63,976 bases of DNA from Chiloscyllium plagiosum (lineage: Eukaryota): NCBI RefSeq assembly GCF_004010195.1, contig NC_057718.1:68372425-68436400 (forward strand), read 5' to 3'. The notes below the pieces were generated by a model that had not been told where the DNA came from, searched no databases, and saw nothing but the letters and a program-made list of their open reading frames with translations. Made by a program: the position numbers and the translations under genes. Below, piece by piece: positions 12,747-61,302 of this stretch (positions are counted from its first letter, which is position 1; the number at the start of each line of letters is the position of its first letter).

Positions 12747-12863
12747 GTTAAAAATCACACAGCACCAGGTTATAGTCCAACAGGTTTAACTGGAAGCACT
12801 AGCTTTCGGAGCACTGCTCCTTCATCAGGTGGTCAACCCAGTCCAACACCGGCATCTCCAAAT
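12747..12863 (-). mobile_element. PLE family B mini-element with intact minimal hammerhead (12797-12831, -)
   Basis: Perfect 12-bp TSD ctttacatcaca (12735-12746 / 12864-12875). Reverse strand reads cac-CTGATGA-a-ggagc-agt-gctcc-GAAA-gc-TA-gtg. Confidence 0.88.
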
Positions 12864-14194
12864 CTTTACATCACAATAATGCACACAAGACAACCCTTGT
12901 CACTCCCCCACAGTCACATGCCCCTCAAGACACACAATTTCAGGAAACAATATAATGTAAATCATCCCATAATAGTCAACTCTGTTGCAAATCTTTTTTA
13001 ACTGCAGGAGTAGTCAAAATTCCAACTGTAATGCTCTTATTGATTTTGCATGGGATGATGATGTGAATGTAAATTATCTTTGAATAATAGGAGATGGCCA
13101 TGTAAATGGCTCTGAATGGCAAGGGATGTGAATGTAAATTCACTTACATTCTACCTGTAGAACAGAGACATCCCACCATAGCCTTGGGACATACAATTTC
13201 CTGCAGGTCAGTAGAGCAAATTAATTCCTTAATATCACACCTGGGCTGGAGAATTTCATTATGGAGAGAGAGAGATTGGACAGACTGGGGTTGTTTTTCT
13301 TAGAACAGTGGAGATTGAGAGAGGATGTGATTGAGATATTTTAAAAACAAAATGAGCAGTATAACTAGGAAGAAACTTTTCAGCATAATGGAGTGATCAG
13401 TGATTGGTAACACAGATTTAAGTCAAGGAGCAGAATGTTCACCGGAGAGGTGAGGAAAATCTTTTGCATCCAGAGGGTGGTGGAAATCTGGAAGTCTCTA
13501 TTTGTAAAGGTGGAATAGGCAGAAACCCTCATACTTAAGTATTTAGATGCATACTTGAGATGCCAAGGCATACAAGGCTATGGGCTAAGTGTCAGAAAAT
13601 AGGATTGGTATTGTTGTTTGAGTGGTGTGGACGCGATTGGCTGAAAGGTGTGCTGTACTTCTTTACCACTCTGTGCCTTTAAATGCCAGTGATATCTATT
13701 GTCTTTTCAAATTTGCATTTATTGATATTATACTAACTATTCATTTAGACATGGTACAAAGTCCAAACTATTGCTTCCATCTTCAGTGTTTCCATTGTCA
13801 GTCTGTGTCATCCTACTTGCAGTCAAATTAACACTTTACTCTCCAAGTCATTGTTTTTATTACAATATTTGCATTTCATCTCCCAAAGTCTGTTTCACAA
13901 GATAATCATTGTGGTAGTTTCACCAATCTCTGTTCTTTTAGAGGTAAAGATCTCATATCTCTAAGTTTATCCTTATAGTCAGAATCATTATTTCACTAAT
14001 TAGAGAATATCCTCTGTTTGGTCATGTTCTGGGTAATTGGTTCACCCAAATATTGGTTTTTGTAATAGAGTGGAAAGTGTTTAATCTTCTGATCTTGTTT
14101 GATTTTCACTGCTTAGCAGGCAAGCACCTTGAATCAATGGTACGAAAGCCTCTACTACTTCATTAAAGTTCATTTCAAAAAATGCAGCTTGTAT

Positions 14195-15290
14195 CTTTTT
14201 GGCAGAATCTTCCAAAAGTTGAAGGTTATCAGAAATTGCAGCGGAACCTTGATCAGCTGGGGAAGTGGGCTGAGAAATGGCAAGTGGGCGACATGGTGGC
14301 ACAGTGGTTAGCACTGCTGCCTCACAGTGCCTGAGACCAGGGTTCAATTTCCGCCTCAGGGGACTGACTGTGTGGAGTTTGCACGTTCTCCTCGTGTCTA
14401 CGTGGGTTTCCTCCCACAGTCCAAAGATGTGCAGGTCAGGTGAATTGGCCATGCTAAATTGCCCGTAGTGTTAGGTTAGGGGTATGGGTGGGTTTCGCTT
14501 CGGCGGGTCGGTGTGGACTTGTTGGGCCGAAGGGCCTGTTTCCACACTGTAATGTAATGTAATCTAATCTAAAGTGACGTTTAGTATAGATCGATGTGAG
14601 GTCTTGCATTTTGAAAAGTCAAGATAGGAGTTTCATGGTGAATGGTAGGGCGTTAAGGAGTATAGTGGAACAAAGGGCCCTCTTAGCTGAGGTTCACAGT
14701 TCTCTGAAAGTGGAGTCACAGACAGACAGGGCAGTGAAAAAACCTTTTGTCACCTGACCTTCGTCAGTCAAGACATAATTAAACATCCTTCCTATAGTAA
14801 GAGTACAAAAGAGGTTTGTAAGGATGTTGCCAGGGCTCGAGGGTCTGAGTTATCAGGAGAGGTTGGATGAGCTTGGACTTTTTCCTTTTATGACTCGGGA
14901 GACTGAGGGGGATCTTAGAAGTGTATAAGATCATGTGAGGCATGGATAGGATGAAGGTGCTCAGACTTTTTCATAGGGTGGGGAATCGAGGGTTAGAGGG
15001 CATCAGTTTAGGGTTAAGGGGAAAGAATAAAAGGGAACCTGAGGGGCAGTGTTTTTACATAGAGGGTGGTACGCATATGGAATGAGCTGCTGGTGGAAGT
15101 GATTGAGATGGGTACATTTAACTACAATTAAAAGGCATTTGGACAAATACATGGAGAGGAAAGGTTTAGAAAGATATGGGTCAAGTGCAGGGAAATGTGG
15201 TTAGCGTGGATGAACACTTTGTTCGGCATGGACCAGTTTGGGCTGAAGGGCCTATCTTCGTGCTGTAGGATTCTATGATTCCATGACTAT
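14195..15290 (+). mobile_element. CR1 3' fragment interrupted by an HE1 SINE
   Basis: LQRNLDQLGKWAEKWQV|TFSIDRCEVLHF rejoins across the SINE. 3' end ttctatgattccatgact. Confidence 0.9.
14284..14571 (+). mobile_element. HE1-type SINE, full length
   Basis: A box tggcacagtgg, B box ggttcaatttcc, tail (aatgt/aatct)n, short aagtg duplication at both flanks. Confidence 0.93.
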
Positions 15291-16565: not shown

Positions 16566-16932
16566 GGAGATCAGTCCAGCCCTTAGGTCAAAATCCTGGA
16601 ATTTCTTCCCTATCGGCATGAAGTAACAGCAACATATTTCCAAGCTACACTCCTGATTTGTGCCTTCTAGACAGTGGACAGACTTTAGGAAGTCATGAGG
16701 GGAGTTACTTACCATAGTATTCCTAGCCTCTGACCTGCTCTTGTAGCCACTATGATGAGTCTAGTTGAACTTCTGGTCAATGGTAACCACAAGTACTTTG
16801 ATAGTGGGTGATTCACTGATGGTGACACCATTGAATTACTATAATTATAGTAATTTGATAGTACAGACATGAATATTGCTGTCAAATCTTTTCAGCATGC
16901 ACTCATGAGGATACTTCACAAGAAATAAAAGA

Positions 16933-17130
16933 TTAAAAATCACACAACACCAGGTTATAGTCCAACAGGTTTAATTGGAAGCACACTAGCTTTTGGAGCG
17001 ACGCTCCATCAGCTGGTAGCGTCGCTCCGAAAGCTAGTGTGATTCCAATTAAACCTGTTGGATTATAACCTGGTGTTGTGTGATTTTTAACTTGGTACAC
17101 CCCAGTCCAACACCAGCATCTCCAAATCAT
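16933..17130. mobile_element. PLE family B fold-back mini-element
   Basis: About 70-bp inverted arms meeting in hammerhead stem II (gagcgacgct...agcgtcgctcc), plus a one-sided tail ccagtccaacaccagcatctccaaatc. Confidence 0.88.
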
Positions 17131-17299
17131 AACTTAAAAGAACATTTGTACTATCCATGAGGAGAATACCGATTAGTTGCCAAGTGGATTCTGGTGAAGG
17201 TATTGCCATGAAGAATGCTCAGGTTAGACAACTGACCTCATTTAACACAACATAATAGATTCAATTTGCAGGTTTATGCTTCAACCAATTTGTCAGCTC

Positions 17300-17899: not shown

Positions 17900-18960
17900 A
17901 GTAGGAGCAGAAGTAGGCCATTCAATGTGGTTATGGCTAATCTAATAATCCTCCATTCCACTTGCTTAACTTATCCCCATAACCCTTGATTCCTTTGGCA
18001 AATAAGAATCTGTCTTATCTCAGTCTTGAATTACTCAATGATCCAGCCATCTGTGGTAGAGGCATCTAGATGGGTACATGAAGAGGAAGGGTTTAGAGGA
18101 ATATGGCCAAGTGCTGGAAAATGGGATGAGATTAGGTTAGGCTATCTGATCAACATGGATGAGTTGGATAGAAGGGTCTGTTTCTCTGCTGTACATCTGT
18201 GACAAGTCCAACTTACTCAATAAAAGAGCAAAACAGTGTAGATGCTGGAAATCTGAAACAACCTGCTCAATCTGTTTTCATAAGAAGATCCCACCATGCC
18301 TGGGATCAGCCTAGTGAACCTCCTGTGGACTGCATCTAGTGCCCTTTTATCTTTCCTTGGATAAGGGGACCAAACTTCTTTCCCATTTTCCATGGTATTC
18401 TTCAGTTTTTGAGGAAGGATCATCAGACCAGTGACAAACATTAACTCTGTTTTCTCCCCACTGGTGTTTTCAGACTTTCTGAATTTTTCCAATGATTTCT
18501 GTTTTCTTCTACAATATTTCAAGTGTGATGTGCTGAGTGTCCTGTATAGTTTTAGCAAGATCTCCCTATTTTTATACTCCATTCTACTGGAAATAAGGGC
18601 CAACATTCAACTTGGATTTGTGGTTTGTGCACTAGAAGCCCTAAATCTGTCTGTGCTGCAGCTTTCTGCAGTCTTTCTCCATTTAAGTAATGTTCAGCTT
18701 TTCCTGCTTAAACCTCACATTTTTGCACACTGAATTCTATCTGCTAGGCTTTTGCCCACTGGCTTAACCTGCCTATATCCTCTTCTTATTATCCTTGCTA
18801 CTTGCCTTCCCACCCATTTTTGAGTCTTACATCAATTTTTCAATCATACATTCACGTCCCTCATCCAAATTATTAATATATATTAAATAATGGTGGCCTC
18901 AGCACTGATTTCCAGGCACTCCACTAGTCACAAGTTGCTCCCCTGAAAAAGCCTCTTTTA
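17900..18960 (-). mobile_element. Degenerate CR1 (-) with nested CR1 3' end (+, about 18059-18203) and PLE family D pieces
   Basis: Minus ORF reads MEYKNREILLKLYRTL..HLKYC and WSPYPRKDKRALDAVHRRFTRLIPG. Confidence 0.75.
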
Positions 18961-19605: not shown

Positions 19606-20658
19606 ACCCGCGAAGGTACTGCCTCTCTCTTTGGCAAGACAGTGGCAGGTGCTTTTGCTGATTTTACTATACACGTACCACCCGAAGATGCTGGTCACTA
19701 CTAATTGGGCTTTTCAAAATAGTGTCTTGGTGTGAGGTCACTACCTTGGAAATTATCTTGGCGTTAGATTTCTGAATCATTTTGGAAATTTTGCAGTTAA
19801 CTTTTGTTGCTGTATCCACAGATGCTTTCAGTTCTCCTGAGCGTTTCCAGCCTCTGTTTATTTCTGATTCCCAGTTGTACACTGTTTTCATAATATGGCT
19901 GCATTCTCATCGGTTTGTTACTCTTCCACTTTTTTCTTATATTGAAAATGTGATTGGTGTTCTCAAAGCACCTTGCTTGACTTGCCACTTTAATAAACAA
20001 GTATAATATCTAACTCTTCAGCAGCCACCGATGTGGGATGTATTTCATTGCTGTTCGGTATTTGACATTTAATCTGCTTGCGGTAAATGCTTAGTGTGTC
20101 TGCTGGCACTAACAGCCCAGAATGGGAAAGCAAACAATGGTCATGTGATTCTTTGGTCAATTGATTGTCCACTTACCTTACCATTTCCTAAGGCTCCAGT
20201 AGTGAACCACATCAAGCAAGATTGCTTTTTCTGAGGAATGATTGATTGTGCCTTGAAGCTTCCAGCAAAGAGAATCTGACTCTTCAAAATATGCACCCAT
20301 AACAAAAGGATTAATTTCTGATAGATTGAGAAAGAAGCATTTAAAGAGCTCTTAAATTATATAAGCAGTTCTAAGTTTAATGTTTATAAAGAAAATAGTT
20401 TACAATACTTGGAATAGTTCATTTAATTGTCATTCTATTGACTTGAGATTTAACATTAAAGTGCTTTTATTGGATGTTTTCCCAAACACATTGTGCTTTT
20501 TATGTTTTAATTGTGACTAGGTGAATAAAATGATTGCAGTTGAAGCCTGTGAACAGTGTACATTGTTTTAAGTGCCATGTAATGTAAAGGCTATACTTTG
20601 TCTCTTGTTTATTGGAAACCTCTCAAGATACTGCAAGTGAAATTATTACTTTGAAGTG

Positions 20659-20994
20659 ATGATTCGGAGATGCCGGTGTTGGATTGGGGTGTACAAAGTT
20701 AAAAATCACACAACACCAGGTTATAGTTTGGTGGGCGGCACGGTGGCACAGTGGTTAGCACTGCTGCCTCACAGCGCCAGAGACCCGGGGTGACTAGCTT
20801 TCGGAGCGACGCTCCTTCATCAGGTGACTAGCTTTCGGAGCGACGCTCCTTCATCAGGTGACTAGCTTTCGGAGCGACGCTCCTTCATCAGGTGATTGTC
20901 TATCACCTGATGAAGGAGCGTCGCTCCGAAAGCTAGTGTGCTTCTAATTAAACCTGTTGGACTATAACCTGGTGTTGTGTGATTTTTAACTTTG
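20659..20994. mobile_element. PLE family B fold-back element with 3 tandem hammerhead units and an HE1 head fragment
   Basis: 12-bp TSD tactttgaagtg (20647-20658 / 20995-21006). Three exact 34-bp units at 20789-20890. SINE head at 20731-20789. Confidence 0.88.
20904..20938 (+). ncRNA. Minimal type-I hammerhead ribozyme motif (family B)
   Basis: cac-CTGATGA-a-GGAGC-gtc-GCTCC-GAAA-gc-TA-gtg: complete core, 5-bp stem II, 3-bp stem I, and palindromic AGCT in place of stem III. Confidence 0.8.
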
Positions 20995-21689
20995 TACTTT
21001 GAAGTGTGTTGACATATGTAGGCAGAAACCAGTACTTTGCCCACAAAATTGAAAAAAAACTTGTCAGATGAGTAACTAGTTAACCAATTTTTAGTGATAT
21101 GAGGGAGAAAGATTCAACAGAAGAAAATGTGATTTCCCTGCATGTCTTCAAATAGTACTACATCACATTCTATGAAATCTGTAGTTAGCTAATTATTTTG
21201 CCACCACATGCAATAGTACAGCTGCTCCATTTCTGTCTAGTCTGCCTGATACCAAATTTTCAGTGAACCAGAATTTCAATCATTTATGCAGGTGCACTCA
21301 AAGTGATCTTTGTTTTATTAAGTGTAGTTCTACTACTACCAAATTGAGTTGTACTTGTTGCTATGATATAATAAATCACCATGTTATTGAATACCTCTTT
21401 TGTAGTTACTCTGTTGCATCCTCTACCACTAATAATTAGATAGTTGCAAGACAAAAGATTGGTGCTAGCAAGCCACATCAGACAACCCTTAGCAGTGCCA
21501 CATACTGGTAGAAATGACAAATACAAAATGTGCCAGGCATGATCACCTGGGAAAATAGAGTTCTCTTTCTTTTTCCCCATCAGAGCCTAATCATTCAATT
21601 TTGTTGCATTCATGAATTATTTGGGCAGGCTTCACGCAAACCATGTATTTTCAGTTATTTGCTCAAACCTTTGCTGAGGCACATCCTGT

Positions 21690-23490: not shown

Positions 23491-24837
23491 CGTCAATCAC
23501 TGAGGCTACTCAGAAAATCACCTGTTTATTCCTGTGTTTTCTTGTCTGCCTGCCTATATCAATATTCTTTAGCGCTGTCCATCATGTCATCGCTGATTGT
23601 TGCACCCTCTCAATATCCTTGCTGAAATCACCCAGTATTAGGAGAGTTTGTTTGGCTTAACTGTGCATTTTTCTAACCAGCTGAGCCACTGGGCAAGTCT
23701 TGTGCCCAAATCTTTAATTGTTTTCATGGTGTAAATTTCCACCCATTGATATTTATTCTCTTTAGTCACGTACCATCTGCAGCTGTATGAATTGAGTGTA
23801 ATATTCCTCAAATAGTTCTTGGTAAAATTCATCTGAAAAGAAAGATGGAAAAAATGTTTCAAGTCATGGTCACTATTTTAGAAAGTATGTAAAGGCCGAG
23901 ACTTTAGTTTAGTAGAACTAGAGAAGCTGAGATTGTTCTCTTCAAAGCCAAGAAGGTCAAGGGGAGAATTAGTAGTGGTTTAGATCTGTGTGTTTTCCAA
24001 AGGGTAAATAAGAGGAAACTGTGGCAAAATAACCAGGGAGGAAATGAAAATATTGCTTATGAAGCAAAATAATTTGGAGAATATAACCTGAAAGGTTGTT
24101 GGAAGCAAATTCAATAGCAAATTTCAAATGGGATGTGTAGAGTGATCAGAAAGCATTACAGGGCCATGGCAAAAGGGAAGTAATTTGGGACAAATTGGAA
24201 AAGTCTTTTTTCTTGAAGAACTTACAGGGTCACAATAGATGCAATGGCTGTGCAGTTTGACTTAATGAGAATTACTTAACTGTACCCATTACCCCACCAT
24301 CTTTTTTGAGTTTCAATTATCATAAATGTGTCTCAATTGCACATGAACTAACATCAGGTGATTTCTTTTTTTGTCAGCGCTTCCTCCTAAGTTTGAACAG
24401 TTAAGCAAAAATCAATATTTACATACTGGAGATGTAAATTGACTGGCATTTTAGCCCGGGTTTTCCAGACAATATATAAAGTGAGTGCATGAAGTTGCAA
24501 AATAGGTAGTGATCTCTTCGCATTTTTCACAGTATCTAATTCCAGAGATCCCAATAAATGTTTACCATTCTGATGGCAGATGTGAGTAAAAGAAAGTTGG
24601 CACTATGTCCTATGGTTACGTCTCTTTAACTCAACAATTTCTGGTCAGAGTGGAGATAATTATATAATTCTTCCATCAATAACTTTATAATCAGTATCAA
24701 GCATTGGTTCCACGTGGTTAATTTGTAGGTAACTAATCTCCTTCCACTTACTGCATTTGCTGGCAAAATCATCACACTTCAGAGACTACTTTAGTTTTAT
24801 TAATCTCTGTTTGCTGTTCTTAGACTTTTTAAAACAA

Positions 24838-25100
24838 GATTTGGAGATGTTGGTGTTGGACTGGGGTGTACAAAGTTAAAAATCACACAACACCAGGTTG
24901 TAGTCCAACAGGTTTAATTGGAAGCACACTAGCTTTTGGAGTGCCACTCCTTCATTGTGTCCACTATCACCTGGTGAAGGAGCGGCGCTCCGAAAGCTAG
25001 TGTGCTTCCAGTTAAACCTGTTGGACTATAACCTGGTGTGAAAGCTAGTGTGCTTCCAGTTAAACCTGTTGGACTATAACCTGGTGTTGTGATTATTAAC
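24838..25100. mobile_element. PLE family B fold-back element with internal 48-bp tandem duplication
   Basis: Inverted arms. gaaagctagtgtgcttccagttaaacctgttggactataacctggtgt occurs twice in tandem. Flanking actttttaaa duplication. Confidence 0.86.
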
Positions 25101-25327
25101 TTTTTAAACCAGTGTAGTCTGCTTGATGTCCCTTGTTGTTAAATGAGCTCTGTTTGATGAGTAAATACATTTTGTTTGCCTTGCTGTTTAATAAGTAAAT
25201 AAACTGAGAATCCTACTTAGGTCCTGACTTACCTTCACTGCACTGACTGACACACTGACTCATAAAATGTCCATATTTTTGAAACGTTCACTGTTTGTGT
25301 TATTCCCATTATCCTAACACCTGTAGT

Positions 25328-26800
25328 GTCATAGAGATGTACATCACGGAAACTGATCCTTCGGTCCAACTTGACCATGCAGACCAGATATCCCAACCCA
25401 TCTAGTCCTACCTGCCAGCAGTCAGTCCATATCCCTCCATACCCTTCCTATTCATATCCCTATCCAGATGCCTTTTCAATGTTGCAATTGTACTAGCCTC
25501 CACCACGTCCTCTGGCAACTCATTCCCTTTGTGTGAAAAGGTTGCCCCTTAAGTTTCTTTTATATCTTTCCCCACTCACCCTAAACCTATGCCTTCTAGT
25601 TTTGGACTCCCCCACCCGAAGGAAAAGACCTTTTCTATTTGTCCCATCCATGCCCCTCATAATTTAATAAACCTCTATAAGGTCTCCCCTCAGCCCTTGC
25701 TTCAAGGAAAATAGCCCCAGCCTATTCAACCTCCTTCCTATAGCTCAAATCCTCCAACCCTGGCAACATCCTTGTAAATCTTTTCTGAACCCTTTCAGGT
25801 TTCACACTATCTTTCCGATAGGAAGGAGACCAGAATTGCATGCAATATTGCAACAGTGACCTAACCAACATCCTGTACAGCTGCAACATACTCTCCCAAC
25901 TCCTGTACTCAATACTATGCCTAATAAAGGAAAGCATACCAAATGCCACCTTCACTATCCTATCTATGTGCGACTCCACTTTCAAGGAGCTATGAACCTG
26001 CACTCCAAGGTCTCTTTGTTCAGCAACACTCCCTAGGACCTCACCAATAAATGTATCAGTTCTGCTAAGATTTGTTTTCCCAAAATGCAGCACCTTGCAT
26101 TTATCTGAATTAAACTCCATCTGTCAGTTCTCAATACATTGGTTCATCTGATCAAGATCCTGTTGTAATGTAATGTAACCTTCTTCACTGTCCATTACAC
26201 CTTCAATTTTGGTGTCATCTGCAAACTTACTATATCTGTTATGCTCACATCGAAATCATTTATATAAATGACAAAAAGTAGTGGACCCAGCACTGATCCT
26301 AGTAGCACTCCTCTGGTCACAGGCCTCCAGTCTGAAAAACAACCCTCCACCACCACCACCCTCTGTCTTCTACCTTTTGAGCCAGTTCTGTATCCAAATG
26401 GCTAGTTCCAACCTTGCTCCCCATCTCCCATGGGGAAACCTTGTTTGAACACCTTACTGAAGTCCACATAGATCACATCTACCACTCTGCCCTCATCAAT
26501 CCTCTTTGTTACTTCAAAAAACTCAATCAAGTTTGTGAGACATGATTTCCCACACACAAAGCAATGTTGACTATCCCTAATCAGACCTTGCCTTTCCAAA
26601 TACATGTACATCCTGTCCCTCAGGATTCCCTCCAACAACTTGCCCACCACCAACGTCCAGCTCACTGATCTGTAGTTCCCTGGCTTGTCCCTACCACCTT
26701 TCTTAAATAGTGGCACTACTTTGGCTAACCTCCAGTCTTCTGGCACCTCACCTGTGACCATCAATGATACAAATATCTCAGCAAGAGGCCCAGCAATCAC
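25328..26800 (-). mobile_element. CR1 LINE, 5'-truncated, about 1.47 kb
   Basis: Minus ORFs GEVPEDWRLAKVVPLFKKGGRDKPGNYR and MEFNSDKCKVLHFG..YCMQFWSP, with an intact 3' tail. Confidence 0.95.
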
Positions 26801-28162
26801 TTGTGTGCATGCAGGATATTTGGAAACTGCTTTATGTGTATTCAGAGTCTTCGGAGGCAGTTTTATGTGAAAACAAAGGCCAGTACTTTAGTTTTGAGAT
26901 CTCAATCCCAATGACATGCCTAATTCTAGAGTGGGCACTCATAAGTGGCTGTGATGGGACCCTGGAAGGGATGTATTAACAGACCATCTGTGCAGTTTGG
27001 ATGGCCAAAGGGCACATCTAAAGCTCAGAGTGGTCAGCAATGCTGCCTATGGAAATCAGAGTGCTCTGAAGATATGTACATTTTTCAAAATATACTGTAG
27101 CTACTGTAGTCAGTGTGTCATTGCAGAAAGCTTCCTATCCATAGAAAATGTCTGTGGTGCTTTCAACCAGTTGAGCCGTACTGGGCTGCTTTGAGGGATG
27201 TGCTTCTGTCAGATGAACTCCACTGAATCTGTCGACTTCAGCCACGTGGGTCAGTCCATCACCGGCCTGTTAAGTGGCCTCAATTGACGCTTGAATGGGC
27301 TATGAGCCGTTGGTGGGTGGCAAATTTCTGCCAACCAGAAGAAGCCTCCCTGAAAATGGGTCAGAGCACCTTGACATACTGATATATTGGCCAGTTGAGT
27401 GAAAACCTGCTTCTACCTTGCTTTGAAGATGTGGCAAATGAGAATAGAAATATTCAAGAAGTCGGTGCATTATTATACTTGTGGTAGTCTTCTGCTACAT
27501 TTCAGCTGGGCTTATCTTAAATCACAAACTATACAGTAATATATTATTTTGTTCTGTTAGTGAAATGTAAATTGATTATTTTTTGAAAAGAAAATTCTTC
27601 CTTCCGAAGGTCTCTTCAGAGACCAGAATAAATATTTGGCCGAGAATTATATTGCAAAAGTACAAGGTAAACGTTAACACCTTGTTTCTTGTGCATTATT
27701 TTTGAGGTTTTTAGTTTATTATGTACATCACAACACTGGCATTATACTTATGCATAAAGTTTTTAAGTTAATTATTTGAATTGAGAATTTCTTATTCCTG
27801 ATCCAATCATCAAATCTATACTTCTAAATACATAGGTTGAGTAACGAATGAACTTGCATAGAACACTGATCTTTTACTGCTGGGATGTGGCCTTTAATCC
27901 AGCAAAGACAATCTCTCAGATTCTACGGATCCTATATGAAATAATTTGTCAGTTTTAACTCTGTTCACAGGTAGCATGAGTTGATAAACAATTTTCATAA
28001 TTTGCCACTGTCAGACTACTAAAAATCTTATATTGCTAACTGCTTTAGTAAGTGGAGAAGTTGACACTGGTGCACTGGAAGAGTGTGGGCCTTTTAAAAG
28101 TTAAATTTAAGGGTTATTGTGAACACTGGAAAGCCGCCATTAATTTTTGTGATTATCTACCG

Positions 28163-44812: not shown

Positions 44813-44879
44813 TAGGTACATCAATATACTGAATAAGAAAATATTGTTGGACGTAGCAAGTTTCTTTCCATCTAAGCCC

Positions 44880-45130: not shown

Positions 45131-45173
45131 TTTAGCCATCTCTATTCTGCTGATAATGTCTCCTGATTTAAGC

Positions 45174-46244: not shown

Positions 46245-46356
46245 CTGATGTACAATCTTTCCAATCATATTCACAGTGATACTAATTTGCTGTACATTTC
46301 TTCCAGTGTGCTTCACTGCAATTTTCAATGTTGCACGTGACTCCCTAGTCTCCCGG

Positions 46357-47726
46357 TTAAAAATCACCCCAGATTATAGTCCAGTACATTTATTTGAAAG
46401 CACTAGCTTTCGAAGCGCTGCTTCTTCATCAGGTGGTTGTGGAATATAAGACTATAAGACACAGAATTTATAGCAACAGCTTTCAGTGTGATGTAACTGA
46501 AATTACATATTGGAAAAGAACTGGATTGTTTAAGTCTCTCGACTTTTAGAATGAGCATGCTGGTTTCGGTTCTTTCATATGTAAAGTGCAAAACGTTTTT
46601 AAAAAGTTATATTCTCAAGTGAACTTTAACAATTGGTGTCATGTCGGCCCAGAAAATGCCGTGAAGGTGTGAGACAGCCTGTGCAAAAATGGTCAGACTG
46701 ACTCTAATCTTAAAAAAACGGATTCACAGAATCTCACATGGATTCATGCAGTTTTTGAACAAAGTAAAATGTCATTCTGCAAATACAAATTCACTCCTAC
46801 AAGCGCGCACACACTCCTACAGACCCATACACTCATGTAGACCCTCTCTCATATGCTCACACATACCCTCCTACACTCTCTCCCTCTCACAGACTTATAC
46901 CCCTTGACACGCACACGCAACACGCACACGCAACATGCGTGCAGTCTCAAGGACACTCATAACCACCTCTTTCCCCCCCACCCCCCCACCCCCACCCCCA
47001 CATGCACACACATCCATATAAGTTTGCGGGGTGAATTTATAATTGCAGAATGATATTTTACTTTGGTCAAAAACTGCATGAATCCATGTAAGATTCTGTA
47101 ACTCCATTTGTTAGATTAGAATCAGTCTGACCATTGTCTGTGCCACAATGGTCAATGTGTGCATGTGGGTGTGTGTGTGGGGGGGGGGGAGCTGGTTATG
47201 GTGGTTATGTGTGTGTGTCTGTGCACCTGTAGGAGTGAATTTTTACTTGCAGAATGACATTTTACTTTGGTCAAAAACTGCATGAATCCATGTGAGATTC
47301 TGTAAACCTGTTTTTTTTAAGATTGGCATCAGTCTGACCATTGGAGCACAGACAGTCTCACACAGGGTAGCCCACACCTTCAATGCATTTTCTGGGAAAT
47401 TGTTAAAGTTCACTTGAGAATGTAACTTCTTTAAAAAAAAAAGTTTTGCAATTTACATATGAAAGAACTGAAACCAGCATGGTCATTCTAAAAGATGAGA
47501 GACTTAACAACAATCCAGGTCTTTTTCAATAAATAATTTCAGAGACATCGCACTGTAAGCTTTTGCTATAAATTCTGTGTCTTACGATCTTATACTCCAT
47601 AGCCACCTGATGAAGGAGCAGCGCTCTGAAAGTTAGTGCTTCCAAATCAACCTGTTGGACTATAACCTGACGTTTTGTGATTTTTAACTTTGTACACCCC
47701 AGTCCAACACCGGCATCTCCAAATCA
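46357..47726. mobile_element. Large PLE family B fold-back element (about 450-bp inverted arms, CA/GT-rich centre)
   Basis: 46357-46800 is the inverted copy of about 47228-47688. Imperfect TSD tagtctcccgg / tagtttcccag. One-sided tail. Hammerhead cores at 46402-46436 (-) and 47604-47638 (+), both mutated. Confidence 0.88.
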
Positions 47727-48599
47727 TAGTTTCCCAGTGATTCTGACTGGCTGTATAATCCTTCAAACCTTCAAATACTAATACTTAGAAATGTATTTTG
47801 GATTTCCTTTATTGTTAGTTATAATTTTTTTTTCATGATCTTTCTTTTGCTGCTTCTATTTGCTTTATCACTTCTTTTCTGAACTGTTTTTAAAAATTCA
47901 TTCATGGGACATAGGCATCACAGATTGTTTCGGTTTTAGTTATCGGGGGGTGGGGGGGGTTGACCTCTGCTTGATAACAATATCACATGGACTGAATCAA
48001 ATTGGCAAAAGACTGGTTTTTGTATTGCTTGGGACCACTGGAGGAGGCTGAGATGGATCGTCCACTTGGCCCTTCTGCTGCCTGAAGATTGCTGCAAATG
48101 CTTTTGCGTTATGTGTTGCTCTGATGTGTTGTGCTCATTCATCATTGAGGATGGCGATATTGTGGAGCCACCACCTGTGTTGTCTACCTCTCCATCACTA
48201 TTCGCATTTGGATGTGGCAGCACTGCAGAGCTTACCTCTGTGTTACTTGCCGCTTATGCCATTTGGTATGCAAGTAGTCCTATTTAGTCACTTCACCAGG
48301 TTGACACCTTACCTTAGGTATGCCTGGTACAGCTTCCCACTGGGGAGTATTAATCCATCTGTCAAGAGAGGACAATACATGGTAACCAGTAGAAGATCTC
48401 CTTGCCCATATTTCACCAGAAGCAATAAGACTTCAGAGTCTGGGGCCAGTGACTCCAAGGGCAATTCCTTCCCGACTGTGCGTCACTGTGATGCCAACTC
48501 TGCTAGGCTGTCCTGCCAATGGGACAGGACGTATACAGGGATGATGATGATGGTGGTGTTTGTAAGGTATGCTTTTGTTAGTATGATTACGTACTTGTG

Positions 48600-49510: not shown

Positions 49511-49529
49511 AACACTGAGACCTGTGCTC

Positions 49530-49620
49530 ACAACCACCTGAAGGAGCAGCACTCCAAAAGCTATTGTTTCTAGATAAACCTGTTGGACTATAACCTGGTG
49601 TTGTGTGATTATTAACTTTG
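49530..49620 (+). mobile_element. PLE family B terminus fragment
   Basis: ccacctgaaggagcagcactccaaaagcta...aaacctgttggactataacctggtgttgtgtga. Confidence 0.8.
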
Positions 49621-51377
49621 TGCTTCCTTAAATTGGGTCTCAGTTATCACCACAAAGATCAATTCCCCTAAGGCAATCTGTGACTGTAGCTCTGCACTCT
49701 CACTGCACGTATGTGAATGCAATTAACCCCTGATTTAGAATTCATTACTCTTCCTTACTTCAACTCCAAGTAGTGAATGAATTTAAATGAATGAGACTTT
49801 TTTGTCTGAATCTTATCAGACTCGTTATTGACTTTTTTTTCCAAGACTGAAGAATACACATTTTTAATACCTGTCCTTGTAACACGGTTTCTGATCCTGT
49901 GGATTATCCTCCTAGGATTTCCTTGCTCTCAAGGCTTGAATTTTCAAATTGGTGCAAAACGTTTTGGAGATGGATTATGCTACTTGACTCAGGAGATCTG
50001 GATATTATGAAAATAAAGTGAGTGACTGAGAATGCAGTTAGGGATTGCAGGTGTCTTTCTTTCATGCAGTATTCTGCTATATGGTATTATCAAAAGATGG
50101 AAAATATTCTGCTTTAACTTTTTTGACTAGGTCATTTTCTTGTAACAATTCTTTGTCCCACACCACTCAAGCATACCAAAATTGCTTCCCTTTATGTCTC
50201 TTATATCTTGTGTGTAATATGTACACCAAGCAAAACATTGACACTGATAATACTGTTGGATTTAGAAGTGCTAACTGACTATTTGAAAAAATTCATTTCA
50301 CCTAGGAGAAAGCTTCACTGAAATTTTTTTTTGCAAGTTACTTCTGAACTGCTGGAAATCTTTACAATTGCTTACACAACCTTCTAGAAATGTTAAGAAG
50401 TCAGGAATGCTTAAAGAATCATTATATACAAGTTATTACATTAAACCAAATGCAATACAGATTGCAATTTGTTCTGCAAATAATGCTCAAAAACTTATTA
50501 AGAAATAACAAGCATTAAAGCCAGATCAGGTCTAATATTATTTCTGTTTCATCTTAGGGTTACCAATCTGTCTATTTCAAATATGCCCAAATAGTTTGTA
50601 GTTTGTTATTTTTAAAATCAACAATTTACTATTGATCTAAATGGACTTCTGAACATTTATGAATTGTGAAATTTGAGACCTCTTAAGGATTTGACAATCT
50701 GATTTCTCCTTAATCTTCTGTGCATTTGGGAGAACTACCTACCATGCCTCTCCAAGTAAATCCCTGATGTCATTCCAGCGAGGCTGTTGAAAAGGACTGT
50801 TGACATCCTTCCTAATAATCTTGTCCAGAATCAGCCATCATTTTACGACTGGAATCTAACCAATATTTTTGTAGATTTAGTGTAGCTTCCTTGTTTTTGT
50901 ACTTACAATTTGCAAAACAAGTGATCCTGCATTTTTTTTAAAAGAAGCATTATGTACTTAAAAGATAAGTGACTAATCCCTGGTTTCTTTGTTACTGAAC
51001 ACTCAAAATTTTCTCTTCTATTGTTTCTCTTAATTTTTTTTCGATGTAAATTAATCACTTGACAATTTTCTGTATTAAATTTAATCAGTCTACTTCATTT
51101 GTCTATATTATTATTAGATTTGTTCCCACTCTATTTACTGCATTTTCGATTTTCATCTCATCTGGGAACTAAAATTATGCCCACAATATCTAACTCCAGG
51201 CTATAAATGTAAACCAGAAAGGGCAGTTGTCCAAAGACTGATATTTGGAGGGTATTACCAGAAGAACAATATTTTACCACACCTATCCCTTAGTGAATTT
51301 CAAATCCCTGCTGTCAGTGCCGTTATAAGCTCATAGAGTAAATTGATGAATACTGCATTCATTGGAAACCTATTTTT

Positions 51378-51605: not shown

Positions 51606-52038
51606 ACTGCATTACAACAGCCAATGACAATATGTGGTGTTTTCTGTGAAGGTTTTATATTGAGCATTTGTAATTAGGTCATTTGTTTGGAACTATGCTT
51701 TATAAATCTGTCTGAGGCAACGGATAGGCCAGTAGGGCAATGGCCTGCCAATTATTGCCTGGAGTAAAATTCTTAAGATCTACTTTATTTTGTTTCATAT
51801 CCCAGCAAAATGTTACTAAAATCATTTGAAAATGATGAGTCATCCTCTTACAAAATTGGTGTGTGCCTCTTACTTTTGGCCTGTAGGTTAACAAGCAATT
51901 TGTCTCTAGCTAGCAGACCTGGAGCCATGAAAGATCAAAAACAGCATGTTTTCCTGTAGGCCTTGTCAGTATTGACATTTTTCATTTTCCTTTTTGTTAC
52001 TTTAAGCATGGATAACTTTTGCTGACATTCAGACCGTA

Positions 52039-55000
52039 TCATAGAGATATATAGCATGGAAACAGACTCTTCGATCCAACTCGTCCATGCCAACCAGATA
52101 GCCGAAACTAATCTAGTTCCATTTGCCTGAACTTGACCCATGTCCCTTTAAACCCTTCCTATTCATATACCCATCTCGATGCCTTTTTAAATGTTGTAAT
52201 TGCACCAGCCCCAATCATTTCCTTTGGTAGTTCATTCCATAAACGCACCACCCTCTGTGTGAGAAGTTGCCCTTTAGGTCCCTTTTAATTGTTCCCCTCT
52301 AACCCTAAACTTATGCCATATTGTTTTGGACTGCCACACCCCAGGGAAAAGACCTTGTCTATTTACCGTATCCATGCACCTCATGACTTTATAACCTCTA
52401 TAAGGTCACTTCTCAGCCTCTGATGCTCCTGCGAAAACAGCCCTAGTCTATTCAGCCTCTCCCTATAGCTCAAATTCTCCGACCCTGGCAACAACCTTGT
52501 AAATCTTTTCTGAGCCCTTTCAAGTTTCACAACATCTATCCAATAGGAGGGAGACCAGAATTGCACATAGTATACTAACAGTGGCCTAACCAATGTCATG
52601 TACAACCGCAATAGGATTTCCCAGTTCAATTTTCTGATTTATAACTGAAAGCATACAAACACCAGCTTCACTATCCCGACTACCTGTGACTCCACTTTCA
52701 AGGAACTATGAACCTGCACTCCAAGGTCTCTTTGTTTAGCAACACTCTCCAGGACCTAACCATAAAGTGTACAATGCCTAGTCTGATTTGCCTTTCCAAA
52801 GTTCAGCACCTCACATTTATCTAAGTTAAACTCCATCTACCACTCTTCTGCCCATAGGCCCATCTGATCACGATCCTGTTGTACTCTGAGGTAATCTTCT
52901 TTGCTGTCCACTACATCTCCAATTTTGGTGTCATCTGCAAACTTACTAACTATACCTCTTTTATGTTCACATCCAGATCATTTATAGAAATGACAAAAAT
53001 CCGTGTTCCCAGCACCGATCCTTGTGGCGCACATTGATCACAGGCTTCCAGGCAATCCTCCACCACCATCTGCTACCTTCTAGCTAGTTCTGTATCCAAA
53101 TGGCTAGTTCTCCCTTTATTCCATGAGATCAAATGATGCTCACCATTCTGTCATGAGGCACCTTGTTGAACGCCTTAATGAAGTCTATATAGAATCACTT
53201 CAACTGCTCTGCCCTCATCTATCCTCATTGTTACTTCTTCAAGAAACTCAATCAAGTTAGTGAGATATGATTTCCCATGCACAAAGCTATGTTAACTATC
53301 TCTAAACAGTCCTTGCCTTTCCAAATACATGTAAATCCTGTCCCTCAAGATTCCCTCCAAGAACTTGCCCACCACCAATGTCCGGCTCACCAGTTTATAG
53401 TTCCCTGGCTTTTCCTTGCCACCTTTCTTAAATAGTAGCATCACGTTAGCCAACCTCCAGTCTTCTGACATCTCGCCTGTGACTATCGATGATACAAATA
53501 TCTCGGCAAGGGGCCACAGAGTTTTAGAGTACACCTGATTGGTTCCTGGGGATTTATCCAGCTCTGTGCATTTTAAGACATCCAGCACCACCACCTCTCT
53601 GTTATGGGCATTTTTCAAGATGTCACCATCTATTTCTCCACATTCTATATCTTCCATTCCTTCTCCACAGTACACACTGATGCAAAATACTTGTTTAGTA
53701 TCTCCCCCATTTTCTGCGGCTCCACACACACCGGCAGTGTTGCTGATCTTTGAGTGGTCCTATTCTCTAGTTACTCTTCTCATCTTAACGCATTTATAGA
53801 ATCCCTTTGGATTCTGCTTAATCCTATTTGCCAAAGCTATCTCATGTCACCTTTTGCCCTCCTGATTTCCCTCTTAAGTATACTTCTACTATCTTTTGTA
53901 CTATCTAAGGATTCACTCGATGCCTGCTGTCTATAACTGACATATGCTGCCTTTTGTTTTCTTAACCAAAACTTCAATTTCTCCAGTCATCCAGCATTCC
54001 CTACACCTACCAGCCTTGCCTTTCACCCTAACGGGAAAATACTGTCTCTGGATTCTCGTGACTTCATTTTTTGAAGGCTTCACATTTTTCAGCATGTGAA
54101 CATCTGCCTCCAATCAACTTTTGAAATGTTTTGCCTAATACCATCAAAACTGGCCTTCCTCCAATTTAGAATTTCAACTTTTAGACGCTGTCTATCCATT
54201 TCCAACACTATTTCAAAACTAATAAAATTATGGTCACTGGCCCCAAAGTGTTCCTCCATTGGCACCTCAGTCACATGTCCTGCCATATTTCCCAAGGGTA
54301 GGTCAAGTTTTGCACCTTCTCTAGTAGGTACATCCATATACTGAATATACACCTTAATAAATTCCTCTCTATCTAAACCCTTAACACTATGGCAGTCCCA
54401 GCCTATGTTTGGAAAGGTAAAATCCCCTACTGTAACTAACCTATTATTCTTACAGATAACTGAAATCTTACAAATTTGTTTCTCAATTTACTGCTTACTA
54501 TTGGGGGATCTATATTACAATCCCAGTAAGGTGATAATCTCTTTCTTATTTCAGTTTCACCCAAATAACTTCCCTAGACATATTTCCAGGAATATCCTCC
54601 CTAAAAACAGCCATAATGCTATCCCTTTTCAAAAACTTCACTCCCTCTCCTTCCTTGACCCTCTTTCTATCCTTCTGAGAGCATTTGTATCCTGGAACAT
54701 TAAGCTACCAGTCCTGTCCATCCCTGAGTCACATTTCTGTAATTGCTATGATATCCCAGTCACATGTTCCTAACCATGTCCTGAGCTCATCTGCCTTTCC
54801 TCTTCGGCCTCTTGCATTGAAATAAATGCAGTTTAATTCACCGTGTTCTCTCCTTTGCTCCTGCCTGCTCTGATGGTTTGACCTGCTCCTTTTCCCAACT
54901 GTACCAGTCTCAGACTGATCTCTTTCCTCTCTCCCTGGGTCACCTCACCTTACTAGTTTACATCCTGCAGCTCTAGCAAATCATCCTGCCAGTATAGTAG

Positions 55001-56625: not shown

Positions 56626-56786
56626 CTGTCCATTCCTAGCAGTTACCATCACACCTGTGATACCAGCGATTGCAGGAGTTTTGTTCTTTTTTGTGATGGG
56701 GACGTTGCTCCGTACAAGCTTCAGTGATCCAGGAGTTCTACCTCGCGCTACGCAAGATGAAGCAGCTGACCTGGAAAGACAGATAG
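56626..56786 (+). CDS. zdhhc14: Internal coding exon (equivalent to exon 2) of DHHC palmitoyltransferase ZDHHC14
   Basis: T-rich tract plus aacag| acceptor at 56625 and G|gtaac donor at 56787. The 161-bp exon (phase 2 in, phase 1 out) translates CPFLAVTITPVIPAIAGVLFFFVMGTLLRTSFSDPGVLPRATQDEAADLERQI, near-identical to my recollection of vertebrate ZDHHC14 TM2 plus the SDPG motif. The paralogues ZDHHC9/18 are less similar. Confidence 0.92.
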
Positions 56787-56880
56787 GTAACAGTGAAGGA
56801 CTGTCTTTCTGTTTCTGTCCACCTTTTACTATTCTAATAATCACTTGACACTACGGAACTTGAGTATTACTGAAAAAGAG

Positions 56881-57080
56881 CTGAAAATGCGTTGCTGGAA
56901 AAGCGCAGGTCAGGCAGCTTCCAAGGAACAGGAGAATCGACATTTCGGGCATAAGCCCTTCTTCAGGAATGCCCGAAACGTTGATTCTCCTGTTCCTTGG
57001 ATGCTGCCTGATCTGCGCTTTTCCAGCAACGCATTTTTCAGCTCTGATCTCCAGCATCTGCAGTTCTCACTTTCTCCTCC
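56881..57080. mobile_element. PLE family A fold-back mini-element, 94 bp downstream of the exon donor
   Basis: 16-bp TSD tattactgaaaaagag (56865-56880 / 57081-57096). About 72-bp inverted arms. Confidence 0.93.
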
Positions 57081-57989
57081 TATTACTGAAAAAGAGACCT
57101 ATTGTTGAAGCTTTTCAGCTTGATTTGATCAGGGCAGGTGCAAGAATGTCCTATTTCAAAGAGAACAATAGTTTATACTGCATGAGAAAAAAATGCTGAT
57201 TGGTTAGTAAAGGGACACTAGTCAAGATGCTGCACTCAAAGGGTCTGGGAATAGTTTAAGAAAATGCTGTTAAAGTAGAAGATCGACCATGGTCTAATTG
57301 AATGGTAAAATGAGCTTAATGGACTGAATGAACTACCGTTCTATTTCCTCTGTTCCTATGAGCAGTTGACCTCATGCTTTTATTTAATTCAAAAAAGACA
57401 GTGACAGGATTTGTGCTTTCTCCGCAAAGGACAGTTCTTTACATATGAATATATGTACCTTCTAGCAAATGTAAGTGAGCCATATTATGAGCCCAACTGA
57501 TCTTAAATTGCTGGTTATTCACAAACCTAATTGTTTAAAAGTGCTGTCAAATTGTGGAATTGTAACTAACATTAGATGTTACAAGTTTTGCAAGCACAGG
57601 CTGATTAAATAGTTTGCCGATTGTCAACAATTGAAGGAGCATCCTGATTCACCCGTACATCCAAGTGTATGGATCTATGCTCCATTGAGGCATTGCACCT
57701 TCTTTAAATTATTGTGCCATCATACTTGGTTTAATTCACAGGTGCATTCTTTGCGGTAATGTCTCAACCAAACAATCAGCACCCTTTTTCACTAATTTCA
57801 ATTTCAGCTAAATTGTTGTTCCCTAAATAATTTGGCATTCTTGTATCTGTGGTGATCAATACAATATCAAGACTGGAATACTGGTAGTGTAAGAGGCAGC
57901 TAGGGGTACATTTTCCTAGGTTGTGTTCAGGAGAGTTTCCCATAGCAGCGTGTGTCTCGTCCTACAAGAAAGTATACATTAATTAAAAT

Positions 57990-58309: not shown

Positions 58310-58476
58310 TCTACCTCAACTTGGGAATGAGGTGGCCAAGTGAGTTGTCTGTAGGGTTTCAATTAGATGATTGTATAATAAGGTTCAGGATAGTGGTGGT
58401 GAATGACAACATAAAATCCAGAGTAAGAAAAATCACTTGATGGAAAGCTGACTTAAATGGGGCAAGAAGAGAGATG

Positions 58477-59695
58477 AGGAGAAAGTGAGGTCTGCAGATG
58501 CTGGAGATCAGAGCTGGAAATGTGTTGCTGGAAAAGCGCAGCAGGTCAGACAGCATCCAGGCAACAGGAGAATCGACGTTTCGGGCATAAGCCCTTCAGG
58601 NNNNNNNNNNNNNNNNNNNNNNNNNNNNNNNNNNNNNNNNNNNNNNNNNNNNNNNNNNNNNNNNNNNNNNNNNNNNNNNNNNNNNNNNNNNNNNNNNNNN
58701 NNNNNNNNNNNNNNNNNNNNNNNNNNNNNNNNNNNNNNNNNNNNNNNNNNNNNNNNNNNNNNNNNNNNNNNNNNNNNNNNNNNNNNNNNNNNNNNNNNNN
58801 NNNNNNNNNNNNNNNNNNNNNNNNNNNNNNNNNNNNNNNNNNNNNNNNNNNNNNNNNNNNNNNNNNNNNNNNNNNNNNNNNNNNNNNNNNNNNNNNNNNN
58901 NNNNNNNNNNNNNNNNNNNNNNNNNNNNNNNNNNNNNNNNNNNNNNNNNNNNNNNNNNNNNNNNNNNNNNNNNNNNNNNNNNNNNNNNNNNNNNNNNNNN
59001 NNNNNNNNNNNNNNNNNNNNNNNNNNNNNNNNNNNNNNNNNNNNNNNNNNNNNNNNNNNNNNNNNNNNNNNNNNNNNNNNNNNNNNNNNNNNNNNNNNNN
59101 NNNNNNNNNNNNNNNNNNNNNNNNNNNNNNNNNNNNNNNNNNNNNNNNNNNNNNNNNNNNNNNNNNNNNNNNNNNNNNNNNNNNNNNNNNNNNNNNNNNN
59201 NNNNNNNNNNNNNNNNNNNNNNNNNNNNNNNNNNNNNNNNNNNNNNNNNNNNNNNNNNNNNNNNNNNNNNNNNNNNNNNNNNNNNNNNNNNNNNNNNNNN
59301 NNNNNNNNNNNNNNNNNNNNNNNNNCGAAGGAGTTGGGAGAATGGGATGGCGTTTTTACATGGGGCAGGATGGGAGGAGGTGTAGTCCAGTTAGCTGTGG
59401 GAGTCGGTCGGTTTGTAGTAGATGTCCGTGTTGATTCGGTCGCCTGGGATAGAAATAGAAAGGTCGAGGAAGGGGAGGGAGGAATCTGAGACTGTCCAGG
59501 TGAATTTGAGGTCGGGGTGGAAGGTGTTAGTGTAGTGGATGAACTGTTCAACCTCCTCGTGGGAGCAAGAGGCGGCGCCGATACAGTCATCGGATGTAGC
59601 GGAGGAAAGGTGGGGGGTGGGGCCAGTGTAGTTGCGGAAGATGGATTGTTCCACATATCCTACGAAGAGGCAGGCATAGCTGGGGCCCATGCGGG
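58477..59695 (-). mobile_element. Longer PLE family A copy spanning an N gap (58601-59325): RT core to 3' terminus
   Basis: MGPSYACLFVGYVEQS..DDCIG..FHPDLKFTW..LPFLDL..TDIYYKPTDSHS is Penelope RT. The family A terminus lies left of the gap. 9-bp TSD agagagatg (58468-58476 / 59696-59704). Confidence 0.88.
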
Positions 59696-60147
59696 AGAGA
59701 GATGGTCAGGATTTACTGGTTGTTGGGAAATTCACTAAGTGAACAATGGGCTGCCTTAAATGAGCAGATGATGTGGGTCCAATTGAGGTATATTCCCTCA
59801 TTTGGGAAAGATAGGACCGACAAATCCAGAAATCCCTGGATGACAAAGGAGGTAGAATTAACATCAGAAAGAAAATTTGTGATAATGGCAAGTTGAAAAT
59901 ACAATTGAGAACGAAGTAGAACACTGAAAGTTTAGAGAGATAATTATTAAGCAAATAAGAGAAGCAAAGAGTAATCCCAGTATCTTTTATAGGCATATAA
60001 GTATTAAAAGTAGCTCTGAACCAGGAGACCTGGGTCCAAGTACCACGTGCTTTAGAGGTATGTAATATCTCTGATCAGGCCACATTTTAGAGTATTGTGT
60101 GTAGTTTTGGGCCCCATATCTCAGGAAGGATGTAATGGTCCTGGAGC

Positions 60148-61302
60148 GTGTTCATTCATTGTGGTAGAGTCTGCATGGTCTCACCAATATGTCATGCCTC
60201 AGGGCATCCTTGTCTGCAGCATATAACGTAGACCACATTGGCCGAGTCATGAGTGTCTGCTGTGTATGTGATGGCTGTTGTTCCCATGTGTGATGGTCGT
60301 ATCCATGCAGATGCTACACCAACAGATGATTGGATTCCATGCAGCAATTGCCAGACAGGAATGTTTTCTCCCATTCGGGGAACATTCCAGCTGTTTAGGA
60401 CATTCAGCCTCCGATCCTTGGGTAAGCGTCCTCCAAGTTGGACTTTGGGATACATAACAACGCAGAAGTGCAGAATAGAAACTGATAGTCAAGTTTCATA
60501 TCGATAAAGACTGCCTCAATTGTGACCTTGGGTTCATGCTGTGCTACATGTGAGCCCACCACACTATTCTATACCAGTAAAATCTTGCTTACTGTCCTGT
60601 TTTGACACCATGACCTTGATAAATTGTTATGATCTCTTTACCTTTAGTTAGTTTGTACAATTTTGGATTACTTGTTTGGTTAGATCCTTGACATGCGACT
60701 GTTATACCTGTTATGTTTTTCCAGAGTGTTTCCAACACCACCTTATTTTTTAAGATTTTGTAATTATCTCTCTGCCTTATTTAATTGGATGATAGCTCAT
60801 CGCTTTGCTTGTTATTCAGTTGTTGACTAGGAGAAAGTGGACTGCAGATGCTGTACAATCAGATGAAAGGTGTGGTGCTGGAAAAGCACAGCAGGCCCGC
60901 CAGCATCCGAGGGGCAGGAGAGTCAACGTTTTGGGCATAAGCCCTTCATCAGGAGGGCTCATGCCCTAAATGTCAACTATCCTGCTCCTCGGATGCTGCC
61001 TGACCTGTGCTTTTCCAGCACCATGCTGTTTGCTTCAGCTGTTGACCCTTTACTCACACCATCTGACACTCTTGGTCACCTGCAGAGACTTATTGTTCGA
61101 CACTTCACTCACACCAGTTGTATAATCTTTTGATCTCTCTGCCTATAAATTCTGTGTCTGTGTGCTCTACTCTCTCACTTCACCTGACAAAGGGGGCTGT
61201 GCTCCAAAAGCTTGTGATTTCACATAAACCTGTTGGACTATAACCTGATGCTGTGTGACTTCTGACTTTGTCCACCTCAGTCCAACACCGGCATCTCCAC
61301 AT
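60148..61302 (+). mobile_element. PLE family B parent fragment: GIY-YIG endonuclease (N-half inverted) plus 3'UTR and family B terminus
   Basis: (-) 60148-60330 DSANVVYVICCRQGCPEA*HIGETMQTL. (+) 60338-60553 AIARQECFLPFGEH..GHSASD..LNCDLGFM. Ends cagtccaacaccggcatctccacatc. Confidence 0.82.
60828..61033. mobile_element. PLE family A fold-back mini-element nested in the family B UTR
   Basis: 13-bp TSD ttcagttgttgac / ttcagctgttgac (60815-60827 / 61034-61046). Confidence 0.85.

Follow-up and report, generated by a model that had tools for sequence, protein, structure and literature searches.

Insertions in the introns of a ZDHHC-type gene

The window analyzed here is a 63,976-nucleotide (nt) stretch of contig NC_057718.1 of the shark Chiloscyllium plagiosum (positions 68,372,425 to 68,436,400 of the forward strand), and its subject is a population of insertions whose ends carry minimal hammerhead ribozyme motifs of the kind known from Penelope-like elements (PLEs). 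The window is an intron-exon-intron portion of a ZDHHC-type gene on the plus strand, with the best PDB match of its exon being ZDHHC9 (E 5.5e-16). Further host exons were found outside it, one upstream at about −20 kb and a DHHC exon ~119 kb from the window start. A first-pass annotation of this DNA had placed the insertions in the introns of a single gene, and the exon confirms that host gene.

Profile searches recovered termini of four families, designated A, B, C, and D (14, 17, 2, and 6 termini, respectively), and grouping these gave a window total of 25 insertions (A 10, B 9, C 1, D 5). Automatic merging gave 9 for family A with 2 neighbors joined; the list below has 10. The first-pass estimate of about 25 insertions in four families holds for the window as a whole, but only 18 of the 25 lie inside the interval 12747-61033 that it had named. 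All 11 invariant core bases are kept in 13 of the window termini, and no family D copy in the window has a complete core. Strands are given in brackets, and inverted pairs are fold-back structures.

1677-1753 (minus): family D terminus, weak (E 3e-5)
2978-3465 (plus): family B long, old copy with AT-rich 3' untranslated region (UTR), decayed core, and tail
3850-3973 (plus): family A copy; core 3864-3891 keeps the 11 invariant bases, palindrome lost to CpG decay
5990-6233 (plus): family A copy with ~217 nt of upstream UTR, G12 mutated; Neptune-type reverse transcriptase (RT) fragment at ~5120-5500
7120-7224 (minus): family D (old, A-like) decayed terminus
8792-9290 (plus): family B long, old copy, decayed core
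12747-12880 (minus): family B short copy; complete hammerhead 12797-12831, start 34 nt above the cleavage site, tail piece at the opposite end, 12-bp target duplication
16926-17140 (no single strand): family B inverted pair, junction within the ribozyme
18416-18519 (plus): family D decayed terminus
20645-20999 (no single strand): family B composite of an inverted tail piece, the 5' piece of a short interspersed element (SINE), three head-to-tail 34-nt cores, and a complete core at 20904-20938 (plus); 12-bp target duplication
24827-25110 (no single strand): family B inverted pair with a 48-nt duplication, mutated cores
31544-31750 (no single strand): family A inverted pair; the minus copy begins at the first base of stem I, with G before it
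33521-33652 (plus): family A short decayed copy, begins at the ribozyme edge
41033-41328 (minus): family A long copy; TATA-like box and initiator present, hammerhead 41128-41163 complete (stem I of 4 bp), both tail sites, target duplication of 14 bp
41598-41800 (no single strand): family A inverted pair, junction within the ribozyme, 13-bp target duplication
42565-42688 (plus): family D terminus, decayed core
44242-44813 (no single strand): family C (Poseidon-type), one inverted insertion; cores 44281-44314 (minus copy) and 44705-44738 (plus copy, with tail), 12-bp target duplication
45171-45330 (no single strand): family D inverted pair
45700-46254 (plus): family A copy that retains UTR and a C-terminal remnant of GIY-YIG; core at 46153-46180, stem I of 2 bp plus U.U
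46356-47728 (no single strand): family B long inverted composite; complete core 46404-46432 (minus), core 47607-47635 (plus) with broken palindrome, TATAAA 69 nt above the cleavage site
49523-49625 (plus): family B short copy, start 35 nt above the cleavage site, core with a deletion
56626-56786 (plus): host exon, ZDHHC9/14/18-type palmitoyltransferase; the remainder of the window is introns of the same gene
56867-57091 (no single strand): family A inverted pair; core 56939-56966 (minus), 16-bp target duplication
58476-59705 (minus): family A copy, Neptune-type RT fragment, assembly gap, then ribozyme and tail
60828-61023 (no single strand): family A inverted pair, both copies begin at the ribozyme edge
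61109-61307 (plus): family B older copy, decayed core

The six cores that had been reported as complete are real, each at its reported position and strand. The earlier reading missed the complete family B core at 46404-46432 (minus) and the three tandem cores at 20795-20891 (minus), which have a stem I of only 2 bp, and it treated 44278-44317 and 44702-44741 as separate although they belong to one inverted insertion.

Hammerhead motifs at the ends of coding elements

A descriptor of the structure, requiring the core, ≥3 bp in stem II, and GAAA-NN-UH, found 13 motifs in the window, and 7 of these also have ≥3 bp in stem I; the corresponding values in 100 shuffled sequences are 0.23 and 0.02. 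For the genome, we sampled contigs 1-8 and 10-35 at fixed positions, taking 100 stretches of 10 kb each (972,490 non-N bases, small scaffolds left out), in which the same descriptor gave 69 matches in 972 kb compared to 4.85 after shuffling, with a CUGANGA and GAAA..UH core and no stem III. An unpaired nucleotide lies between A9 and stem II in 66 of these 69, a palindromic 15.1-16.1 segment is present in 55 (1.4 when shuffled), and the G-C closing pair of stem II, or its CpG decay, is the dominant form. These scans bear out the earlier assignment of the motifs to minimal type-I PLE hammerheads with a palindrome in place of stem III.

Predicted folds of the complete motifs form stems I and II. 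In the majority form of family A, stem I amounts to 2 bp plus a mismatch and does not appear in the predicted fold. Pair 3 of stem I was examined among 113 family A copies, where a U.U mismatch predominates (67, against 14 A-U and 12 U-A), and among 50 family B copies, which have C-G in 32, U-A in 9, and an unpaired or wobble combination in 9; in family C, the combinations G-C, C-G, and U-A all occur. The claim that the stems covary and that structure is conserved thus stands for stem I of B and C and is weak for A, in which the proposed attc/gaat stem is present as a minority form. Stem II of family C consists of 3 bp, a mismatch, and a further 3 bp. When 5 motifs were folded as two strands, the stem II halves paired across the strands in 4 of them, with a lowest-energy form that lacked the stem-III dimer, and the fifth (family A, 46149) paired through the palindrome without stem I. 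In older subfamilies related to C (L195, L205, L188, L033, and L088), stem II reaches as much as 7 bp and pairs in stem I are compensated, so the genome holds more than four hammerhead families.

Three of the four families lead into protein-coding sequence. For family A, an open reading frame (ORF) at locus L118 matches RVT_1 at E 4.6e-8 and, at E 3e-4 and thus short of the Pfam cut-off, GIY-YIG. A C-X4-C-X2-C linker lies between the RT and GIY-YIG regions, and the A motif follows ~160 nt downstream. The family C motif overlaps the last codons of an ORF that falls in GIY-YIG/RVT_1 clusters and has no CX2-5CxxC linker, and in the minus copy of the window insertion at 44242-44813 the endonuclease C-terminus reads into the ribozyme. 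Family B has a long UTR and lies behind a second Neptune-type endonuclease, of which GIY-YIG and C-terminal remnants and a decayed linker are present; the RT of family B was not recovered. Family D is old and A-like with decayed cores, and no coding link was shown for it. Assigned by linker motif only, A and B would be Neptune-type and C Poseidon-type. A first look at the genome gave 39,330 candidates for the A RT and 69,542 for the C endonuclease end. The first-pass view of independent non-autonomous mini-element families is not supported, A, B, and C each being continuous with RT/GIY-YIG coding sequence.

The same ribozyme-tail segment appears to form both ends of the family A element, because at loci picked by the N-terminus of the A ORF it continues into the 5'UTR (13 of 25) and there reaches the start codon ATG in 12 of the 13. 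Inverted clusters are frequent in all three coding families (A 31/103, B 15/32, C 5/18), and the 3' ends are bimodal, with peaks ~36-40 nt apart at ~63/99 in A (n = 160), ~55/94 in B (n = 37), and ~40/80 in C (n = 47). The four commonest loop-II variants of A occur in short copies (13/8/6/2) as well as in long ones (11/3/9/3), so the short forms look like by-products of coding elements; no variant private to the short A copies was seen in this comparison of loop-II subfamilies. As far as sequence can tell, the insertions are short, often inverted ends of three coding PLEs, two Neptune-type and one Poseidon-type, together with an old decayed family.

Several further observations concern these coding ends and tails. 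The family C ribozyme is read twice as protein. The ORF crosses the core with its last codons and ends at a stop codon in loop II, and a second frame, which continues through the tail, opens with an ATG where stem II begins (44281-44335, minus, and 44711-44810, plus; also L125 and L129). At ~30-47 nt below the cut, the tails of A and D (e.g., 46205-46227) contain CTGAC followed by a run of pyrimidines and CAG, and the arrangement in B is similar. In A and D, this order resembles a branch point and 3' splice site, for which a matching donor was not identified. PLEs often keep an intron in the 5'UTR. At locus L115 (G000:C38), a copy of a Neptune-type RT continues into a long, perfect tandem array whose 69-nt unit leaves all three frames open, possibly an assembly artefact.

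Exact-pattern matches in the 3.556-Gb genome number 63,857 for A, 12,186 for B, and 8,259 for C, a total of 84,302, with no match to reversed control patterns anywhere in the genome. The sample contained 19, 2, and 2 of these exact patterns where 18.0, 3.4, and 2.3 were expected and can thus be regarded as representative. Its 271 termini form 191 clusters and include 78 intact cores, which extrapolates to ~680,000 insertions in the whole genome and ~280,000 intact cores (219,000-346,000), ~107,000 of them with a palindrome and 3-bp stem I. The very large number anticipated from the window alone is supported. The window itself is about twice as dense as the genome average (25 insertions against 12.3 expected, P = 0.001) due to family B (9 against 2.1).

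The fixed 5' end of the short copies

In what follows, 5' ends are given as nucleotides above the predicted cut, and were determined by walking upstream against long natural copies. In a first set of family A copies, from which those near gaps or edges or with poor scores had been dropped, 35 of 111 end at positions 30-33, none at 34-37 or 43-59, and 12 reach at least 60. A second set was drawn sequentially from the copies with exact cores on contig 1, 72 in all, of which 8 near gaps or edges were passed over; of the remaining 64, 31 end at 31-38 and 29 reach at least 60. Position 32 in family A is the first base of stem I and also the A of a match to the pyrimidine-A-N-T-pyrimidine initiator consensus, and a TATA-like box (TTTTAT/TTTATC) lies at −64/−65, 32 nt above the 5' stop. 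The base preceding ATTC in long A copies is C or T in 45 of 45 and never G, while in short copies it is G in 10 and A in 2 of the solo copies (P = 0.004) and G in 9 and A in 4 of the inverted ones (P = 0.04). An extra G of this kind has been reported as a mark of cap copying in full-length L1 insertions.

In family B, the position of TATAAA at −69/−67 led to predicted starts at about −37/−35 before the test set was examined (10 of its 30 loci had been fetched earlier). Nearly half of the copies (16/33) end at 32-43, 7 of these 16 at the two predicted As, and 5 of the 7 have a G before them. The family A copies linked to the ORF have 5' ends at 32, 32, 30, 29, 20, 19, 13, 12, and lower, and none of the 13 passes 32. 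Ends at the predicted cut itself (position 0) are found in 6 of the 111 family A copies against ~1.2 per position, although position 23 has 7; two of the six represent one 17-nt duplication, two show stem-I microhomology, and one is probably misassigned. No 5' end lies exactly at the predicted cut in families B and C.

In family D, TCAGTT stands directly before the core, an initiator-like position as in A (e.g., 42575-42590; L051 and L189), and by eye several D copies appear to begin there.

Most short copies of A and B are probably the products of internal RT priming followed by run-off at the 5' end of a capped RNA, which is predicted to coincide with the first base of stem I. In such a scheme, the template RNA would be uncleaved and capped, the 5' stop would mark the transcription start, and the ribozyme would constitute the first 36 nt of the transcript. 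The internal priming sites would be ~60 or 100 nt below the ribozyme. RT that primes in the 5' copy of the tail would run off at the capped end and leave stubs of 100-135 nt, often then folded back. In the 3' repeat that base is an internal one, and RT primed there would yield longer, randomly truncated copies. Short copies formed in this way would lack the upstream TATA-like box and be mostly dead on arrival. We found no published report of such a start-site stop in a literature search that took in few subscription papers and not the supplements of Frangieh 2024 or of the bioRxiv study cited below.

Several observations weigh against run-off at a capped start. Family C shares the ribozyme and tail and carries TATAAA at −87, yet the stop expected at −55 is absent, only 1 of its 17 exact copies being shorter than 96, and the mechanism therefore does not hold for every family. 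Some of the extra Gs can equally be assigned to a target duplication or to inversion microhomology, and in so pyrimidine-rich a region an initiator match is easily obtained. Of the 13 ORF-linked copies, one of which is mis-anchored, just 4 extend to the start of the core (ends 29-32), a number that would still be compatible with a 70% stall. Many inverted junctions lie inside the ribozyme, which suggests that structure also matters. The Penelope promoter of D. virilis is reported to be internal and TATA-less, so short copies might still be transcribed.

The alternative that makes most of these junctions leaves the elements the same and takes the 5' stop to be a structural block, with RT stalling or snapping back as it leaves the folded ribozyme, at stem I or a bound protein. 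Besides the junctions within or at the ribozyme, stem I complementarity would provide the microhomology for snap-back, as seen in single copies, and self-priming has been proposed for PLE inverted junctions. We nevertheless consider a block unlikely. Family C has the longer stem II yet shows no stop at the ribozyme edge (1 of 19 ends at 36), most family A copies have little stem I to stall on, as described above, and a stall predicts neither the TATA spacing nor the excess of G.

Less probable still is that the units of ~100-135 nt propagate themselves as non-autonomous elements resembling SINEs or retrozymes. Such units would be expected to have constant termini at both the 5' and the 3' side, to be flanked by target duplications, and to be very numerous, all of which is observed; Penelope promoters can be internal, and PLE derivatives of that type have been described. 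The sharing of all four common loop-II variants between short and long copies argues against it, as does the absence of a TATA-like box from the short unit. Retrozyme arrays are not what the window contains either, because the tandem 34-nt core junction, the only such junction searched for, has 2 matches genome-wide, both at this locus. The tandem at 20795-20891 could be slippage or an assembly artefact.

The ribozyme itself appears to be constrained only in the source elements. Between subfamilies, none of 33 core columns has a non-CpG variant at ≥12%, whereas such variants occur in 23 of the 132 columns of the tail (P = 0.009) and, within the ribozyme, in 10 of the 17 free positions in N7, loop II, and H17 (P = 2e-6), so the core is more conserved than the tail; these tests, like those for covariation, count copies and columns, not independent events. 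Once dispersed, core and tail accumulate mismatches at similar rates (A 5.2 vs 7.1%, B 7.3 vs 8.9%, C 7.1 vs 3.8%), and there is no strand bias over 160 kb of the host gene (intact cores 11 plus and 11 minus; solo copies 20 plus and 13 minus, P = 0.30). Since the core is invariant between subfamilies but decays like the tail after insertion, without strand bias, the constraint is placed on source elements and not on dispersed copies, and the neutral decay and lack of bias indicate that the latter are probably mostly inert. Cutting of host pre-mRNA by dispersed copies, as active or co-opted ribozymes in monomeric or dimeric form, is very improbable in spite of the extrapolated number of intact cores and the folding of complete motifs, given this pattern and published accounts that monomers cleave poorly and that the anole ribozyme needs the element protein.

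If run-off at the transcription start is correct, it would account for genomes filling with 100-135 nt stubs that resemble SINEs or hairpin microRNAs. It would also place the ribozyme at the extreme 5' end of the mRNA, at transcript nucleotides 1-36, so that a cut after nucleotide 32 would remove the cap, giving the ribozyme a specific and testable function. As a more speculative extension, which we consider less likely than not, a protein-assisted cut in the hammerhead of Neptune-type PLEs might release a 32-nt capped piece and thereby act as a decapping switch between translation and silencing or processing. Hundreds of thousands of run-off copies, many with a copied cap G, would then record the start site and amount to a fossil cap analysis of gene expression (CAGE) library in shark DNA.

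Other features of the window and the closest known systems

No tRNA genes were found in the window. Pfam searches of 13 window ORFs gave no PLE domain, and the hammerhead family was absent among 18 Rfam matches at E ≤ 5. Fold-back pairs were considered as microRNAs and rejected, the matches to Rfam microRNA models falling below those models' cut-offs. Decayed RT fragments of long interspersed elements, with a weak RVT_1 match and presumably of CR1 type, lie at 25324-26887, 38261-39541, and 52036-53759. At 31944-32129, a 56-nt 5' piece of an abundant tRNA-like SINE, which we take to be HE1, stands between exact 65-bp direct duplications, unusually long for a target duplication. The SINE piece in the composite at 20645-20999 ends at the same CCCGG and adjoins the three identical 34-nt cores.

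The closest described ribozymes are the minimal hammerheads in the pseudo-long terminal repeats of metazoan PLEs (Cervera & de la Pena 2014, PMC4209133). Shared with them are the core, the extra nucleotide after A9, the G10.1-C11.1 pair, the palindromic 15.2-16.2 segment, the mostly dispersed single motifs, the opposite-strand pairs, and the several covarying families per genome, and in sequence terms the window motifs possess every feature reported there. Stem I has 2-4 bp here compared to 4-5 for S. mansoni in that study, and our 84,302 exact matches compare with ~9,000 in Xenopus and ~4,000 in the coelacanth by its descriptor, though the methods differ. No shark was found among the species named there, in a search that covered a part of the supplements.

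With endonuclease-positive PLEs of the Neptune and Penelope/Poseidon clades (Craig et al. 2021, PMC8557442), the elements share an RT with a C-terminal GIY-YIG that has two cysteines inside, and 5' truncation, inverted copies, and a 30-40 bp tail at either end. The CX2-5CxxC linker described there is present in A, decayed in B, and absent in C.

Transcription is reported to start in the PLE pseudo-long terminal repeat. In the biochemical account of Poseidon_Ac (Frangieh et al. 2024, PMC11167929), the tail is defined by two internal RT start sites ~100 nt below the ribozyme, the template RNA is uncleaved, and cleavage is not needed for insertion in vitro. The bimodal 3' ends in C. plagiosum match the signature of this two-start tail, and the ATG at the start of stem II lies 28 nt above the cut in family C and 26 in Poseidon_Ac. 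Unlike Poseidon_Ac, A and B are Neptune-type, and the start codon of A lies ~138 nt below the cut. That study maps RT starts, and we found in it neither a genomic stop at the RNA 5' end nor a start site at stem I.

Non-LTR retrozymes (bioRxiv 10.64898/2026.07.22.740005) likewise carry PLE-derived type-I hammerheads and are reported in the one chondrichthyan sampled. They form tandem arrays, with a mean chondrichthyan unit of 363 bp, while the copies described here are dispersed or inverted and the sole tandem is 3 x 34 nt. The ribozymes of C. plagiosum are thus of a described kind, and what stands out is their unusually high copy number together with the position they would occupy in the transcript.

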